A stretch of DNA of 64,000 bases from an uncultured Clostridia bacterium (GTDB taxonomy: Bacteria > Bacillota > Clostridia > Christensenellales > Borkfalkiaceae). The stretch is taken from NCBI GenBank assembly GCA_946055105.1, contig CAMGEK010000001.1, positions 414-64,413 on the forward strand, given 5' to 3'. The translations under genes and the position numbers were made by a program. Of this stretch, positions 56,657-63,507 are shown in pieces. The notes beneath the pieces were generated by a model, which saw only the letters and a program-made list of their open reading frames with translations, ran no database searches and had not been told where the DNA came from. Numbering within the stretch: the first letter of the stretch is position 1; every line of letters begins with the position of its first letter.

Positions 56657-59167
56657 ATGAGAAAACTATGGACGTTAGGAATCGGCGTCGTGGCGGCGGC
56701 ATGTTGCGTCGCGGGCGCGGTAGGTTGCGATTCGTCTCCGGAAAAAGAGGCTCAGACGGGCGTTCCGACCGAAATCGTCAACGGCGGGTTCGAGAGCGCC
56801 GATCTTTCGGGCTGGACGGTCGAGTACGGAACCGCGTTTTCCGACGACAGCGTGTCCTCGCAAAAGACGTTTGAGTATGCGGATGACGAAAAGCACAATC
56901 AGATCCCCGTGAACGCGACGGGGAATTGGTATCTGAGCGGAAAGGGCTTTGAAGGGAAGTTTTCGGTCGCCCGCACGGGCGCGATCCGTTCGTCTACGTT
57001 CCGCCTGACGGGAGACGGCGTGCTCAGCATGAAACTTGCGGGCGGCGCGCCCGTGGAGGAAAGGGGCGGAAAGCTCGTCAAGAAACCGACGGAGACGGTT
57101 TGTTACGTCGGCGTCTACCGCGCTTCGGACGACCGCCTGATCGCGCGGCAGACGAACGAATATTTCGTTAAACACACGGAATCGTACGTCATCGTGTCCA
57201 AGTACGAATCGGACGTCTATAACACGGACAATTTTTACAGATACGAGCTCGATCTCTCCGAGTATCTCGGCGAGGATCTGTATCTGCGCGTCGTGGATAA
57301 CGATCAGAGCAACTATTACGGTTATATCAGCGTAGACGATATTCGCACGAACGGCGACGCGGAGGCGCAGACGGAGGGCGCGTTCTTCACCAAAACGCGT
57401 TCCTACGTTCAGGACGCGGAGGCGCCGGAGAACGAACTTCCGAACGGCGGATTTGAAACGGGTTCTCTGGCGGGTTGGACGATTGTCAGCGGCGAGGCGT
57501 TCTCCCACGAGGGCGTCAACGCCGAAAGCGTGTGGTGGAACGAAAACATCACCTATTCCCGCGACGGAGACTATCATTACGGATTCTACAATCCGACCGC
57601 GGTCGGCGTCATGCGCTCGTCCGAGTTCGTGCTGGGCGGGTCGGGATATATCAGCTATAAGTTAGGCGGCTGTAAGGACAATGCAAAGACCTATCTCCGC
57701 TTTCTGTTGAAGACGGAAGAGGGCGACAGGGAGATCCTGCGCGCGTCCAACTATAAATTCCGCGATTTCCAATTCCCTTACGTGGCGAACGGCATGCGTC
57801 TTCTGAACATGGTGCAGTATTACGCCGATTTCTCGGCGTATCTCGGACAGACGCTCTATATCGAAGCGGTGGACGAGAACGCGAGCGCGGACGACCTCGG
57901 TTGCATGACGTTGGACAGTATTCAGACTTATTGGCAGGGCACGCCCTCGTGGAGCGATTTCCGCGCGGCGTACGAAGTGAAGTTCGACGCCGAAACGGAG
58001 ATCGTCAGCCCCTGTCAGGTTCTCAACGGGAACTTTGAAACGGGCGATCTGACGGGCTGGACGGCGAGCTGGACGGACGAGAACGACAGAATCGGTTACG
58101 TTTCCTCCGAATCCGTCTGGTGGGGAACGTTCTCCTATAACAAGGGCGGGAACTATCTGTTCACGGGCATCTCCGACGAGGGCAAGACGGGCACGCTGAC
58201 GAGTTCGGAATTCGAAGTCGGCGGCTGCGGATGGATGACGTTCCGTCTCGGCGGAGGCGGCGATCCCGCGAAGTGCTACGTTTCCGTGCTCGACGCGGAG
58301 ACGGGCGAAGAGCTTGCGCGCTATGCGAACGCGTATTTCTTCGATCCGGGATTCACCGATCTCGTCAATCGCGGCACGAATCTCGCGAACATGGTGCATT
58401 ACAGAGCGGATCTTTCGGCGTTTGTCGGACGGACGGTTCGGTTGCAGATCGTCGACAACGCGACGGGCGGCTGGGGGCTTGTCTGCGCGGACAGTTTCAG
58501 AACGTACTATCAGACGGAAGCGGCTTTGCCCGACGGAACGTATCTTGCCCGCAATATTCTGCCGCGGGAAACGCTCGGTGAGGGAAGCGAATATCAGGCG
58601 CTCAACGGGAACTTCGAGACGGGCGATCTGACGGGCTGGACGGCGACGGGAGACGCCTTTATCGGAATTTCTCACGAAGAAGTCTGGTGGAACGAATGGT
58701 ATTCGTTCAACAAAGAGGGAGAATATTTCCTGAGCGGCTGGGCGGGCAACGAGAGCGCGACGGGCACGCTTACAAGCTCGGAGTTCACGGTTGGCGGCTG
58801 CGGTTGGATCACCTTCCGTCTCGGCGGCGGGAAAGATACTTCGCTCTGCAACGTGAGTATCGTCGACGCGGAGACGGGCGAAACGCTCGCGATTTACGGC
58901 AATACGCTCTTCCGCGATCTGATCAAACCCGGGTGCTACTATTACGGCGGAAAGCCGATCGATCTTTCAAAGGACGGTTCGTATCTTGCGAACATGGCGC
59001 TCTATCGGGCGGATCTGTCGGCGTTCGCGGGCAGACGCGTGAAAATCGTTCTCACCGATCGGGCGACGGAAGATTGGGGCTTGCTGTTCGCGGACGAGTT
59101 TATCACCTATTACGCGACGGAGGCGGAAATTCCCGTCGGCGCGACGGTCGCGATCGATCTGAAATGA
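56657..59167 (+). CDS. lipoprotein made of four tandem beta-sandwich-like modules, no catalytic motif (candidate fructan-binding protein)
   Basis: It has the lipobox-like AVGC. The four repeats start at aa 42, 263, 457 and 650 (nt 56780, 57443, 58025, 58604). Each follows the pattern NG.FE(T/S)..L.GWT ... VWW ... G(T/V)(L/M).SS.F.(L/V)GG.G.(I/M).(F/Y).LGG ... Y.ADLS.(F/Y).G ... VD ... D.(F/I).T(Y/N). Confidence 0.8.
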   Translation: MRKLWTLGIGVVAAACCVAGAVGCDSSPEKEAQTGVPTEIVNGGFESADLSGWTVEYGTAFSDDSVSSQKTFEYADDEKHNQIPVNATGNWYLSGKGFEGKFSVARTGAIRSSTFRLTGDGVLSMKLAGGAPVEERGGKLVKKPTETVCYVGVYRASDDRLIARQTNEYFVKHTESYVIVSKYESDVYNTDNFYRYELDLSEYLGEDLYLRVVDNDQSNYYGYISVDDIRTNGDAEAQTEGAFFTKTRSYVQDAEAPENELPNGGFETGSLAGWTIVSGEAFSHEGVNAESVWWNENITYSRDGDYHYGFYNPTAVGVMRSSEFVLGGSGYISYKLGGCKDNAKTYLRFLLKTEEGDREILRASNYKFRDFQFPYVANGMRLLNMVQYYADFSAYLGQTLYIEAVDENASADDLGCMTLDSIQTYWQGTPSWSDFRAAYEVKFDAETEIVSPCQVLNGNFETGDLTGWTASWTDENDRIGYVSSESVWWGTFSYNKGGNYLFTGISDEGKTGTLTSSEFEVGGCGWMTFRLGGGGDPAKCYVSVLDAETGEELARYANAYFFDPGFTDLVNRGTNLANMVHYRADLSAFVGRTVRLQIVDNATGGWGLVCADSFRTYYQTEAALPDGTYLARNILPRETLGEGSEYQALNGNFETGDLTGWTATGDAFIGISHEEVWWNEWYSFNKEGEYFLSGWAGNESATGTLTSSEFTVGGCGWITFRLGGGKDTSLCNVSIVDAETGETLAIYGNTLFRDLIKPGCYYYGGKPIDLSKDGSYLANMALYRADLSAFAGRRVKIVLTDRATEDWGLLFADEFITYYATEAEIPVGATVAIDLK

Positions 59168-60642: not shown

Positions 60643-60798
60643 ATGAAAAAACAGGACAAACGGCAAGGGCGGCAACGTTACGAAGAACCGTGTTTGGCGA
60701 TCGTAACGGTGTCCTCGGACGATCTCATCCGCACGTCCGGGGGGTGGGATCTTCAAGACAAGAACGAAGAGGATTTCTTCGTCGGCGTCGGTTTTTGA
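60643..60798 (+). CDS. small hypothetical protein, 51 aa
   Basis: The SD AAGGAGG lies 5 nt upstream of the ATG. The product is MKKQDKRQGRQRYEEPCLAIVTVSSDDLIRTSGGWDLQDKNEEDFFVGVGF. It is below the ORF-track length cutoff. Confidence 0.4.
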   Translation: MKKQDKRQGRQRYEEPCLAIVTVSSDDLIRTSGGWDLQDKNEEDFFVGVGF

Positions 60799-60813
60799 CG
60801 AGAGGAGGTAAGG

Positions 60814-63507
60814 ATGATGATGGCAAAGAGAAAGATGACTTTAATGGCGTTATCCGTACTCGGCGCCGCCACGTTGACGGCGGGCGCAACGGCATGGAAC
60901 GCGCTTTCCGCAAATGCGGAAGACGTGTTGTTGGCGAACACGATGCCGTTTTCGATGGCGTACGGAGCGAGCGCGCGCGTCGGCGGAAGCGAAGCGTACA
61001 ACGGAATCCGCTTTGTCGCCGAGATCGCGAAAAGCGACTACGAGGCGCTGGAAGCGGACGCGGATTACGACGCGTCGTACGGCATGTTGATCGCGCCGCT
61101 CAGCTACGTTCAGGAAAACCCGTTTACCGTGGAGAACGTATTCGGCGCGTCTGCGGTCTATAATTGGGCGACCGTCGAAGACGACGGAACCGTAACGCCT
61201 CCCGCGGAAGAGATCGGGAAGAAGAGAATCTCCAATCTTGCTTACGACGAATTGCCCGCAGCGGGGGACGTTTACGAAATCAGAGGATCTCTGACGAAGA
61301 TCAGGGAAGAGAACCTTCTCGTGGAGTTCACGGGTCGCGCGTACGTGAAACTTACGCCGAAGAGCGGCGAGGGCGAGACGATCTACCGCATGGCGGACTA
61401 TGCGGAGGGAAGCTTGGAAAACAACGTACGCTCCGTCGTGTACGTTGCGCAGCGCGCCTGCGAAGATCCGTCCTCGAAACTGACCGAAACGCAGAAAGCG
61501 CAGCTCAAAGGCGACTATATCGACAAGGCGGTAGCGCAGAACCCGACGACGGAGTATACCGTTGAAACGTACGTCAAAGACGGAGATCAGAAAATACTGA
61601 TCAACCGCGAGACGAAAACGGGCACGCTCGGCGAAACGGTCGATTGTGCAACGCCGCAGGACGGCTTCACCGTTTCCGAGGAATCTACGGCGAGCGGTCA
61701 GGTGTACGCGAACGGCAGATTGAATCTTTCCGTCGTCTACGAATATACCGCCGCCGTCAGTGGTTACCGCGTGCAGAACGGCGGGTTTGAAACGGGCGAT
61801 CTCACGGGCTGGACGTTGACAAAGGGAGAAGACAAAATCGCCATCGGCGCGGTCAGCGGCGCGTCCAACTATTGGATAGACGATAATGAACGTGCGGAAG
61901 GGTATTCTTTCAGGAAAGACGGGGAATATCTGTTCAGCTGTTACGCGGTCGACGGCGGAGACGGCGCGGTCGGTACGTTGACGAGCGCTCCGTTCACGGT
62001 CGGCGGTTCGGGCTGGATCACGTTCAAGCTCGGCGGCGCGAAAAACAGCGATCAGGTCTGGATCGACGTCGTAAAAGCGAGCGACGGAAGCATACTCAGG
62101 CGTTTCGGCAACCCGAATTGGCAGGAGCGGACGGACGGCGTAAAGAGCGGCTGCACCATGAACGCCTATAAAGCGGATTTGTCGGAATATCGCGGCGAAA
62201 CGGTCTATCTCCGTCTCGTGGACTATGCGACGGGCGACTACGGTCTGATTTTCGCCGACAGTTTTGAAACGTATTACTTCGCAGAACCTTCGTCGGAGTT
62301 CTTCACTTCGGCGACGGACGTGACCGAAAGAGCCGAAACGGTTTACGATCTGTACAACGGCGGTTTCGAGAAATCCGATCTTCGCGGCTGGACGAAAGTC
62401 GGGAAGATCGGCGACGTCTCTGGCGATTCCACTTATTGGGGGGATATTTCTTTCAAGAAAGACGGAACGTACCTGTTCAGCGGCTATGCGGCGGGACAGG
62501 AGGAAAAAGCAAAGGGCTCTTTGACGAGTTCGCCGTTTATCGTCGGCGGAAGCGGTTGGGTGACCTTCAAGCTCGGCGCGGCGAAGAACAGCGCGGAAAT
62601 GTACGTCGACGTCGTGGATTACTATTCGGGCGAAGTGCTCAGGCGTTTCGGCAACCGCCTGTGGCAGGACAGAGACGCAGTCAGAGGCTGTACGATGATC
62701 GCGTATCAGGCGGATTTGTCCGCATATCTTGGCAGAACGGTTTATTTCAACCTCGTCGACAACGCGGAAAGCGATTACGGTCTGTTCTTCGCCGACAGTT
62801 TCGTCACCAATCATCCCGAAGCTCCTTCGTCGGCGGACTTTGCGATTGCGCTGGATACGCGGCTCAACGTCGTGAACGGCGGATTCGAGACGGACGATAT
62901 GAGCGGATGGACGAACAGCGGAGTCGGCTTTATGAACAGCGCGACGACGTATTGGGAAACAGATGCGAATTTCTTCGATCAGGACGGAAAGACCGTGCAA
63001 TACTTCTTGCAGGACGGCAACCGTTTCCTGATGACGAACGAAGGCGGAGACGCCGGAACCGGTACGGTCCGTTCTTCCACGTTCACGTTGGGAGGAGACG
63101 GCTGGATCAGCTTCAAATTTGGCGCGGCCGGAAATCAGGACTGTTACGTTCGGATTTGTCTGGATGACGGAACGGAAATTGCCAAAATTACGAACGACGC
63201 GTTTGCCGATCCTACGCTTGCAATGGTGCTGCTGCGCCGCTTTGTAAATCTCAGCGACTATATCGGGCAGAGTATGTACGTCGAATTGGTCGATAACGCT
63301 ACGTCAGGCTTCGGATTCCTGACGTTCGACGCCCTTGCGGTCAGCCTCACGAACGCGGAAGCGCAGGCGATGCTCGGTTACGATAAAGCGCAGTATGCGT
63401 CTTACCGTCAGGACGTGATCGATAGCGAAGTTTCGATGGGAGCAAGCGCCAAAGCTATCGTTACTGCGATCCAAGACTATTATAAGAATCTGACCTTGAC
63501 GGTCTGA
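60814..63507 (+). CDS. secreted protein with three copies of the same module as 56657-59167 plus a distinct ~320-aa N-terminal region
   Basis: It has a signal peptide (..ALSANA/ED). The modules start at aa 322, 515 and 688 (nt 61777, 62356, 62875), with the same NGGFETGDLTGWT ... GTLTS.PF.VGGSGW(I/V)TFKLG ... Y.ADLS.Y.G ... LVD ... ADSF pattern. I saw no anchor motif. Confidence 0.8.
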   Translation: MMMAKRKMTLMALSVLGAATLTAGATAWNALSANAEDVLLANTMPFSMAYGASARVGGSEAYNGIRFVAEIAKSDYEALEADADYDASYGMLIAPLSYVQENPFTVENVFGASAVYNWATVEDDGTVTPPAEEIGKKRISNLAYDELPAAGDVYEIRGSLTKIREENLLVEFTGRAYVKLTPKSGEGETIYRMADYAEGSLENNVRSVVYVAQRACEDPSSKLTETQKAQLKGDYIDKAVAQNPTTEYTVETYVKDGDQKILINRETKTGTLGETVDCATPQDGFTVSEESTASGQVYANGRLNLSVVYEYTAAVSGYRVQNGGFETGDLTGWTLTKGEDKIAIGAVSGASNYWIDDNERAEGYSFRKDGEYLFSCYAVDGGDGAVGTLTSAPFTVGGSGWITFKLGGAKNSDQVWIDVVKASDGSILRRFGNPNWQERTDGVKSGCTMNAYKADLSEYRGETVYLRLVDYATGDYGLIFADSFETYYFAEPSSEFFTSATDVTERAETVYDLYNGGFEKSDLRGWTKVGKIGDVSGDSTYWGDISFKKDGTYLFSGYAAGQEEKAKGSLTSSPFIVGGSGWVTFKLGAAKNSAEMYVDVVDYYSGEVLRRFGNRLWQDRDAVRGCTMIAYQADLSAYLGRTVYFNLVDNAESDYGLFFADSFVTNHPEAPSSADFAIALDTRLNVVNGGFETDDMSGWTNSGVGFMNSATTYWETDANFFDQDGKTVQYFLQDGNRFLMTNEGGDAGTGTVRSSTFTLGGDGWISFKFGAAGNQDCYVRICLDDGTEIAKITNDAFADPTLAMVLLRRFVNLSDYIGQSMYVELVDNATSGFGFLTFDALAVSLTNAEAQAMLGYDKAQYASYRQDVIDSEVSMGASAKAIVTAIQDYYKNLTLTV

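Follow-up and report, generated by a model that had tools for sequence, protein, structure and literature searches.

A probable fructan-binding CBM38 array protein with no visible anchor in a GH32 locus of an uncultured gut Clostridia bacterium

In the window, the whole 64,000-nucleotide stretch of DNA that was analysed, the gene at 60814-63507 (plus strand) probably encodes a Sec-secreted, non-catalytic fructan-binding protein. It is built from a signal peptide, two N-terminal head domains (D1 and D2), three CBM38 modules (M1 to M3) and a tail, and would serve multivalent capture in a GH32 locus (Table 1). The open reading frame is intact and, at 897 aa, is the longest frame at that site. The translated N-terminus has a basic n-region (AKRK), a moderately hydrophobic h-region and A-N-A followed by E, and signal peptidase I is predicted to cleave after residue 35. 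At the position equivalent to the predicted cleavage site, 28 of 32 homologs carry the motif [AV]xA[EDQN]. An earlier note on this DNA had described a secreted protein of 897 aa, and the intact frame and the SPase-I-type signal read in the translation agree with that description.

Table 1. Features of the gene, its predicted product and the paralogous gene (window coordinates).
Feature	Position	Strand	Basis or remark
Shine-Dalgarno AGGAGG	60803..60808	+	read from sequence; 5 nt 5' of ATG 60814; strong
Signal peptide, aa 1-35 (predicted)	60814..60918	+	translation; Sec/SPase-I-type; without Cys
D1, aa 36-242	60919..61539	+	FN3/Ig-like beta-sandwich with helical insertions; AF2 model
D2, aa 243-316	61540..61761	+	MucBP-like beta-grasp domain; VIA fold matches
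CBM38 module M1, aa 317-505, subclade II	61762..62328	+	alignment, HMM, tree
CBM38 module M2, aa 506-682, subclade II	62329..62859	+	alignment, HMM, tree, AF2 model
CBM38 module M3, aa 683-845, subclade I (divergent type)	62860..63348	+	alignment, tree, fold match
Helical tail, aa 846-897, and stop codon	63349..63507	+	AF2 helices, tail HMM
Paralogous four-CBM38 lipoprotein	56657..59167	+	lipobox-like A-V-G-C at aa 21-24

Besides both array genes, the locus contains three GH32 genes, an SBP, two permeases, LacI and PfkB. The stop-to-start gap between the gene and PfkB is 18 nt, and scanning its surroundings for promoters and terminators gave no signal above chance. The gene appears to be co-transcribed with this GH32, ABC transporter, LacI and fructokinase fructan-utilisation locus. 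CBM38 arrays that bear D1 lay in GH32 fructan loci in five of five contexts (the window, L002, L093, L094/L096 and L098). The 897-aa protein probably binds fructan. Its three modules would bind beta-2,1 (possibly beta-2,6 too) fructan chains multivalently outside the cell. In this way they would gather the polymer close to the extracellular GH32 enzymes and to the lipid-anchored four-CBM38 paralog, and the oligosaccharides set free would be taken up by the ABC importer.

Inulin-type fructans are widely used prebiotics, and to our knowledge their surface capture by Gram-positive gut bacteria is poorly described. The most likely role of the protein is to help this uncultured gut Clostridia bacterium keep dietary fructan within reach of the enzymes that cut it, which neighbouring genes encode. 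It adds to the known arrays an anchor-less CBM38 variant with an uncharacterised head domain, which departs only modestly from what is known and leaves the overall picture of fructan utilisation unchanged. By analogy, its logic would be that of the Bacteroides SusE/F-type SGBPs and of R. bromii Sas6/Sas20, in which multivalent CBM arrays in a polysaccharide-utilisation locus feed neighbouring enzymes. The domain families and the anchoring of those proteins (a lipid anchor for the SGBPs, a dockerin for Sas6/Sas20) are unrelated to the 897-aa protein, however, and no sequence relationship to them was found.

The module starts are marked by NGGFE at aa 322, 515 and 688 of the 897-aa protein (~175-190 aa per module) and by NGGFE or NGNFE at aa 42, 263, 457 and 650 of the 56657-59167 lipoprotein. 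The two proteins matched each other by BLASTP at E 4e-82. Pairwise and multiple alignment of the seven modules gave 25-58% pairwise identity and 18 invariant columns; judged from these alignments, their likeness is far beyond chance, which bears out the proposal that the three modules are homologous to those of the upstream lipoprotein. Within this genome the modules are confined to these two genes. The lipoprotein, with orthologs in many gut Firmicutes MAGs, shares the module family and the operon with the 897-aa protein, and neither has a catalytic domain. The lipoprotein carries a lipobox and opens directly with a module, whereas the 897-aa protein combines an SPase-I-type signal with D1-D2, three modules and the tail.

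A homolog search with a nine-module Oscillibacter array as the query found a named enzyme, the cycloinulo-oligosaccharide fructanotransferase (CFTase) of Niallia (Bacillus) circulans (BAA24360.1/O52973). By BLASTP, residues 318-829 of the 897-aa protein, three modules in a row, matched residues 58-543 of BAA24360.1 with 33% identity (531 aa aligned, E 8e-76). An HMM of the seven modules matched BAA24360.1 at 55-234 and 242-412 (3e-64 each), 423-526 (9e-13) and 1332-1489 (4e-30), all outside its GH32 part. This layout is the same as the CBM38x3-GH32-CBM38 annotated by dbCAN in Defluviitalea raffinosedens (PMC7355431), which lends the CBM38 assignment indirect support. In the CFTase of B. macerans, the N-terminal region is reported to contain the inulin-binding module (PMC8291819; Lee et al. 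2004, cited in PMC4835578). By sequence comparison, the modules are of the CAZy CBM38 inulin-binding type, an already known family, and the CFTase matches rule out a new CBM family. CBM38 specificity is documented in the literature for CFTase modules only.

The CFTases of N. circulans and Paenibacillus macerans/polymyxa have homologous modules, with the NGGFE..GWT start and the ~170-190-aa period in common, and like the 897-aa protein they combine both module subclades with a GH32/fructan context. In these enzymes of soil bacilli, the modules share a polypeptide with a GH32 catalytic domain, whereas in the gut Clostridia MAG they stand alone on a non-catalytic protein that has the D1-D2 head and the tail. 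No named CFTase came up when the homolog search started from a module-plus-GH32 protein (L046), and a related-locus search from the four-module alignment, limited by its patterns, found no Paenibacillus. With 2398 representative proteins matching the module profile, CBM38 arrays that stand alone seem to be widespread among uncultured gut Firmicutes, and a limited literature search found no publication describing them.

Fold comparison by VIA gave M2, in an AF2 model with a mean pLDDT of 82.8 (me8a400874f9b), Z 11.9 to CBM61 (2xom) and Z 11.1 to CBM4 and CBM16. M3 matched the porphyran-binding CBM 8xmz with Z 13.6 (130 residues aligned, rmsd 3.0). In these models the fold of the CBM38 modules is a CBM-type beta-jelly-roll, a beta-sandwich. 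Against the PDB, the seven-module profile met 8xmz at the N-terminal motif only (E 3e-4) and CBM61 at E 0.68; sequence and profile searches found no CBM38 structure there.

The third module, described earlier as diverged, does diverge most among the three: it is 32% identical to both M1 and M2, while M1 and M2 are 58% identical to each other. A phylogeny of the modules carried the point beyond plain divergence. The tree split into two clades (support 99/96), and M3 grouped with CFTase repeat 3, the CFTase C-terminal module and the first module of the lipoproteins, and not with M1 or M2. On this tree CBM38 is made up of two old subclades, and M3 belongs to the separate subclade I and has not simply drifted. 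Subclade I also has a helical tail of its own. In the AF2 model that includes M2, the tail was helical over model residues 342-356, 361-365 and 371-387, with pLDDT mostly 78-91 by block and 65 at the extreme C-terminus. A tail HMM matched right after a module in L027, L033, L038, L039, L041, L045, L046, L093, L094 and L096. The ~50-aa tail is a conserved element that regularly trails subclade-I modules and here forms the C-terminus of the protein. Its identification as FIVAR (PF07554) was rejected, as residues 841-897 matched no Pfam family, FIVAR included, at E up to 10. In longer relatives, FIVAR is present elsewhere in the protein.

The separation of M3 from M1 and M2 in this well-supported tree, and the tail that subclade-I modules carry, could be read as dual specificity, with the modules, or at least M3 and the tail, recognising a ligand other than inulin (levan, a mixed-linkage graminan or a non-fructan glycan). 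We consider this rather unlikely. Both subclades coexist in one CFTase that acts on inulin, and M3 keeps all 18 columns that are invariant among the seven modules.

Regular-expression and Kyte-Doolittle hydropathy checks confirmed the absence, noted earlier, of an LPXTG motif, a lipobox and a C-terminal transmembrane segment. The first Cys of the protein is residue 216, so it has no lipobox. No C-terminal LPXTG was matched, the sole similar string being an internal LPAAG at aa 147, and no 19-residue window reached a mean hydropathy of 1.5. The protein ends in an amphipathic helical tail, and D1-D2 contained no detectable SLH, LysM, CWB, GW or SH3b wall-binding motif. At the sequence level, the contrast drawn by the earlier note between a lipid-anchored array protein and one with no visible anchor holds. 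In 13 of 15 syntenic loci the position-equivalent second array protein is a lipoprotein, whereas the D1-bearing array proteins have cleavable AxA-type signals and no lipobox, which suggests that D1-D2 might stand in for the lipid anchor. In the mechanism that we tentatively propose, the mature N-terminal D1-D2 would keep the protein at the cell surface non-covalently, in place of the lipid anchor of the syntenic paralogs.

Release into the medium fits the absence of an anchor equally well. After signal cleavage the protein might diffuse and coat or capture fructan particles, with D1-D2 as a spacer or solubility domain. The MucBP domains of R. bromii pullulanases lie between other domains in a spacer-like manner, and a related genome encodes one protein in which D1 lies internally or at the C-terminus, so that a spacer role fits D1 as well as an anchoring role. 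A diffusible form, however, would be of little use to a cell whose uptake is by an ABC transporter, and the near-universal lipid anchor of the position-equivalent paralogs argues that surface location matters. We believe that free release is unlikely, and retain surface retention by D1-D2 as the working proposal.

No catalytic domain was found in the N-terminal 285 aa by Pfam, NCBIfam, PDB phmmer or fold search. A known catalytic domain, which could have accounted for the protein in another way, was thus looked for and rejected; the sequence searches were empty and the fold matches were only FN3/Ig-like and MucBP-like. D1 was modelled by AF2 with a mean pLDDT of 89.2 (mab1f6ec000db), and its VIA matches to the RsgI4 sensor domain (7cg8) and FN3 domains (Z 6.0-6.6, ~100 residues aligned) are within the background range. 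It is conserved in 33 homologs and has no Pfam match; D1 is an uncharacterised domain. Foldseek with the two-domain model returned only uninformative matches at TM 0.2 (pilins, adhesins and P2X receptors). In the ESM Atlas, D1-D2 met only unnamed Bacillota clusters, a minority of whose members carry Flg_new or MucBP, and these are leads only.

D1, with or without D2, also heads other, unrelated secreted proteins in related genomes. A wider reading, which we regard as doubtful, would make D1-D2 an unrecognised non-covalent surface-retention module of small-genome gut Clostridia, substituting for a lipid anchor with various cargos, and would have the subclade-I CBM38 and its tail add a second fructan specificity. 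The same distribution could suggest an adhesin that bridges the cell to food or mucus, with D1-D2 binding a host or particle glycan such as mucin and the CBM38 modules binding fructan or another polymer. D2 does resemble the MucBP domains of Gram-positive adhesins, its fold matches including lmo0835 (2kt7), Mub-RV (4mt5), LBA1460 (3q69) and YwfG (7yl4), besides R. bromii Amy12 (9qfa, 7lst) and the T. ramosa IgA peptidase (9qa6). Bridging nevertheless seems very improbable to us, since a protein with no cell attachment of its own could not tether the cell unless it was also retained, and D2 lacks a Pfam MucBP match and resembles MucBP structures with Z of only 5-6.6.

D2 matched at least eight MucBP structures over the whole domain, with Z only 5.2-6.6, 62-73 residues aligned and rmsd 2.4-4.1; like those of D1, these matches are in the middling Z range. 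Against Pfam, aa 243-320, which contain D2, matched no family at E up to 10, MucBP (PF06458) included. The Ig/MucBP-like stretch proposed earlier for the N-terminal region is upheld as a MucBP-like fold and not as a Pfam MucBP domain. D2 differs from MucBP domains in this respect and in its single copy, and mucin binding is not implied. Its small beta-grasp-like fold resembles that of MucBP domains in Gram-positive surface proteins and in the R. bromii pullulanases Amy10 and Amy12, and like the R. bromii domains it is part of a gut Clostridia protein that is secreted and carbohydrate-active.

The three-module protein is probably a fructan-binding accessory protein of the locus that encodes it, a reading drawn, like all that we say of its function, from homology and genomic context. 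By Pfam and NCBIfam annotation the neighbourhood is a typical Gram-positive fructan-utilisation locus, running from a 1184-aa extracellular GH32 through LacI, a solute-binding protein (SBP), two permeases, an 833-aa LamG-GH32, the four-module lipoprotein, a 453-aa GH32 of the sucrose-6-phosphate-hydrolase type and the three-module protein to a PfkB kinase, which starts 18 nt past the end of the three-module gene. No promoter- or terminator-like signals near that gene rose above shuffled expectation, which is compatible with its co-transcription with the locus. A copy of the protein in a public collection (P0003) starts at the second ATG and has 896 aa. The small ORF upstream, which occupies most of the 240-nt gap after the 453-aa GH32 gene, encodes a product with a basic N-terminus and an acidic C-terminus; the counterpart of this gap in a Bacilli MAG (MAG11536, L002) is only 134 nt long; the ORF is thus not conserved in that MAG.

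Coordinates of the array genes, their parts and related features (MAG and metagenome loci by L handle)
Feature	Position	Details
Three-module protein gene	window 60814-63507 (+)	intact ORF, 897 aa; AGGAGG 5 nt 5' of the first of three ATGs
D1; D2	aa 36-242; 243-316	FN3/Ig-like; MucBP-like
M1; M2; M3; tail	aa 317-505; 506-682; 683-845; 846-897	NGGFE at aa 322, 515, 688
Four-module lipoprotein gene	window 56657-59167 (+)	836 aa; NGGFE/NGNFE at aa 42, 263, 457, 650; lipobox-like A-V-G-C at aa 21-24
Small ORF	window 60643-60798 (+)	51 aa; AAGGAGG 5 nt 5' of ATG
Seven-module HMM matches in N. circulans CFTase	aa 55-234	E 3e-64
	aa 242-412	E 3e-64
	aa 423-526	partial, E 9e-13
	aa 1332-1489	E 4e-30
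Nine modules adjoining GH32	L048:7200-13994; L052:5485-12306	Oscillibacter MAGs, 2264-2273 aa
D1, one clade I and two clade II modules	L002:6726-9125; L098:7911-10250	no D2
Single N-terminal module on GH32	L039:1965-3992; L041:1961-3988; L044:4307-6358; L057:2879-4978; L094:5602-7647	~675-700 aa; lipobox in at least the L094 copy
D1 with or without D2, no CBM38	L084:6131-9292(-); L085:5471-7807(-); L086:4298-8479(-)	G453, a genome of the same family
	L095:7839-9563; L099:2191-4205	metagenome contigs

The earlier note had proposed that the protein carries three copies of the lipoprotein's module, the third of them diverged, and both points held. The two proteins match at E 4e-82 (BLASTP), and their seven modules align with pairwise identities of 25-58% and 18 invariant columns. 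M1 and M2 are 58% identical, whereas M3 shares just 32% identity with each of them. Across the whole source genome (1.39 Mb, 97 contigs, ~91% complete) the module is confined to these two genes. The modules had no significant match in sequence searches of Pfam, NCBIfam or the PDB. A homolog search with the nine-module array of the Oscillibacter MAG locus L048 led to P0220, identified by cluster look-up as BAA24360.1/O52973, 'cycloinulo-oligosaccharide fructanotransferase [Niallia circulans]' (CFTase). M1-M3 (aa 318-829) are 33% identical to aa 58-543 of this enzyme (BLASTP, E 8e-76), and an HMM built from nothing but the window's seven modules placed three modules N-terminal and one C-terminal of its GH32 core. 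This layout agrees with the dbCAN annotation of the Defluviitalea raffinosedens enzyme, CBM38(44-189)+CBM38(221-367)+CBM38(409-527)+GH32+CBM38(1313-1448) (PMC7355431). The B. macerans CFTase is reported to have its inulin-binding module in the N-terminal region (PMC8291819; also Lee et al. 2004, as cited in PMC4835578). On CFTase homology, the shared layout and this literature, rather than on a dbCAN model, we file the modules under CBM38 as putative members. The family is sizeable: of 1.84 billion representative proteins searched with a profile, 2398 matched at E<=1e-3 and 341 of these reached E<=1e-30.

The AF2 model of aa 506-897 contains two beta-jelly-rolls (mean pLDDT 82.8). In structure comparison these most resembled carbohydrate-binding modules: the porphyran-binding CBM 8xmz at Z 13.6 over 130 residues (rmsd 3.0), then CBM61 (2xom; Z 11.9), and CBM4 and CBM16 (Z 11.1). 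Foldseek also retrieved tandem CBM-type sandwiches for this model.

A maximum-likelihood tree of 68 modules, drawn from both array proteins of the window, from orthologs and syntenic loci and from two CFTases, split into two clades (support 99/96). In clade II, M1 and M2 sat with CFTase repeats 1-2 and modules 2-4 of the lipoprotein; in clade I, M3 was joined by the third repeat and the C-terminal module of CFTase and by the module that opens the lipoproteins, so that both clades occur within one inulin-acting enzyme. M3 retains all 18 invariant columns. It clusters with module 3 of the orthologs that carry the tail (P0005, P0008 and P0013), and with modules of other arrays that lie directly N-terminal to the same ~50-aa element (L039 module 3, P0184 module 1). 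The tail is modelled by AF2 as a helical hairpin (block pLDDT mostly 78-91); its HMM matched internally, right after a module, in L027, L033, L038, L039, L041, L045, L046, L094 and L096, and C-terminally in L093 and the closest orthologs. The clade I placement of M3 and the recurrence of the tail after modules in other arrays mark M3 with its tail as a separate, shuffled cassette rather than a drifted copy.

Other arrangements of the module were also seen. The L002 and L098 proteins have a permuted cassette order relative to the window, their clade I module apparently carrying a tail-like linker, which suggests that CBM38 arrays evolve by cassette shuffling. The single-module GH32 enzymes represent a minimal fusion, intermediate between stand-alone arrays and the CFTase architecture. 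Ten stretches matched in P0298, a representative protein of 3900 aa.

The N-terminal region (aa 36-320), 37-48% identical across 33 full-length homologs, was modelled with a mean pLDDT of 89.2 and pTM of 0.83 and was divided by VIA-align into two domains. The Ig/MucBP-like stretch previously suspected here agrees with the fold matches, with no Pfam match to D1 or D2 even at E 10. D1 (model residues ~1-195, aa 36-~230) resembled FN3/Ig-like sandwiches and the RsgI4 sensor domain at Z 6.0-6.6 over ~100 residues, within the background range; D2 (model residues 208-279, aa ~243-314) gave a consistent series of MucBP matches at Z 5.2-6.6 (R. bromii Amy12, YwfG, T. ramosa IgA peptidase, lmo0835, Mub-RV and LBA1460). 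Among the fold matches of the model there was no catalytic fold, so the region is not a known catalytic domain that would account for the protein. Since MucBP domains of R. bromii pullulanases lie between catalytic, CBM and dockerin modules (PMC5814915), a spacer role for D2 is plausible by analogy. D1, with or without D2, also occurs on five large secreted proteins without CBM38, in one G453 protein near the C-terminus and so not always at the head; Pfam matched nothing anywhere on these proteins. D1-D2 is therefore a shuffled accessory unit, found with uncharacterised cargo domains in related bacteria.

The three-module protein lacks a visible anchor, as the earlier note had stated: there is no Cys before residue 216 to form a lipobox, no C-terminal LPXTG and no hydrophobic window. 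Its n-h-c signal ends in A-N-A followed by E, and the equivalent [AV]xA[EDQN] motif in 28 of 32 homologs argues for probable SPase I cleavage. The order LacI-SBP-permeases-GH32-four-module lipoprotein-second array protein-GH32 recurred in 15 loci of other genomes, and in 13 of them the second array protein has a lipobox. D1-bearing versions (window, L002, L093, L094/L096, L098 and metagenomic homologs) have cleavable-type signals instead. D1-D2 may, at slightly less than even odds, retain the protein at the cell surface, the one pattern pointing to this being the mutual exclusivity of D1 and a lipid anchor; that pattern is nearly as compatible with a released protein on which D1-D2 is a spacer. 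By analogy only, the protein would play the part that non-catalytic surface glycan-binding proteins have in polysaccharide-utilisation loci. It is a new architecture built from modules of a known binding family, CBM38, between an uncharacterised head and tail. In the literature on CBM38, no title of the matching papers carries the term, and no description of stand-alone arrays was found in the few papers examined in text.

Full-length homologs share no more than 48% identity in the N-terminal region, and 40-45% over the whole protein; every one came from uncultured Clostridia/Bacillota MAGs or metagenomes. Architectures among the proteins retrieved included D1-D2-Mod3 (28), D1-D2-Mod3-Tail (7, including the three-module protein itself), D1-D2-Mod-Tail-Mod (3) and D1-Mod3 (3). 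A search for D1-D2 in 36 congeneric genomes and in single genomes of 24 other families of the order gave nothing, and among 400 genomes drawn from the class only G453 had it. Syntenic neighbours share 56-74% identity with the window proteins; the MAGs that carry them bear the labels Christensenellaceae, Christensenella, Clostridia and Bacilli. CBM38 modules occurred in only 14 of 60 congeners of the source genome. This patchy distribution suggests that the locus may move between gut Firmicutes. The best module matches in the congeners are far weaker than the window's own, and the window locus is closer to loci of MAGs labelled Christensenellaceae or Bacilli than to those of congeners, which hints at lateral transfer.
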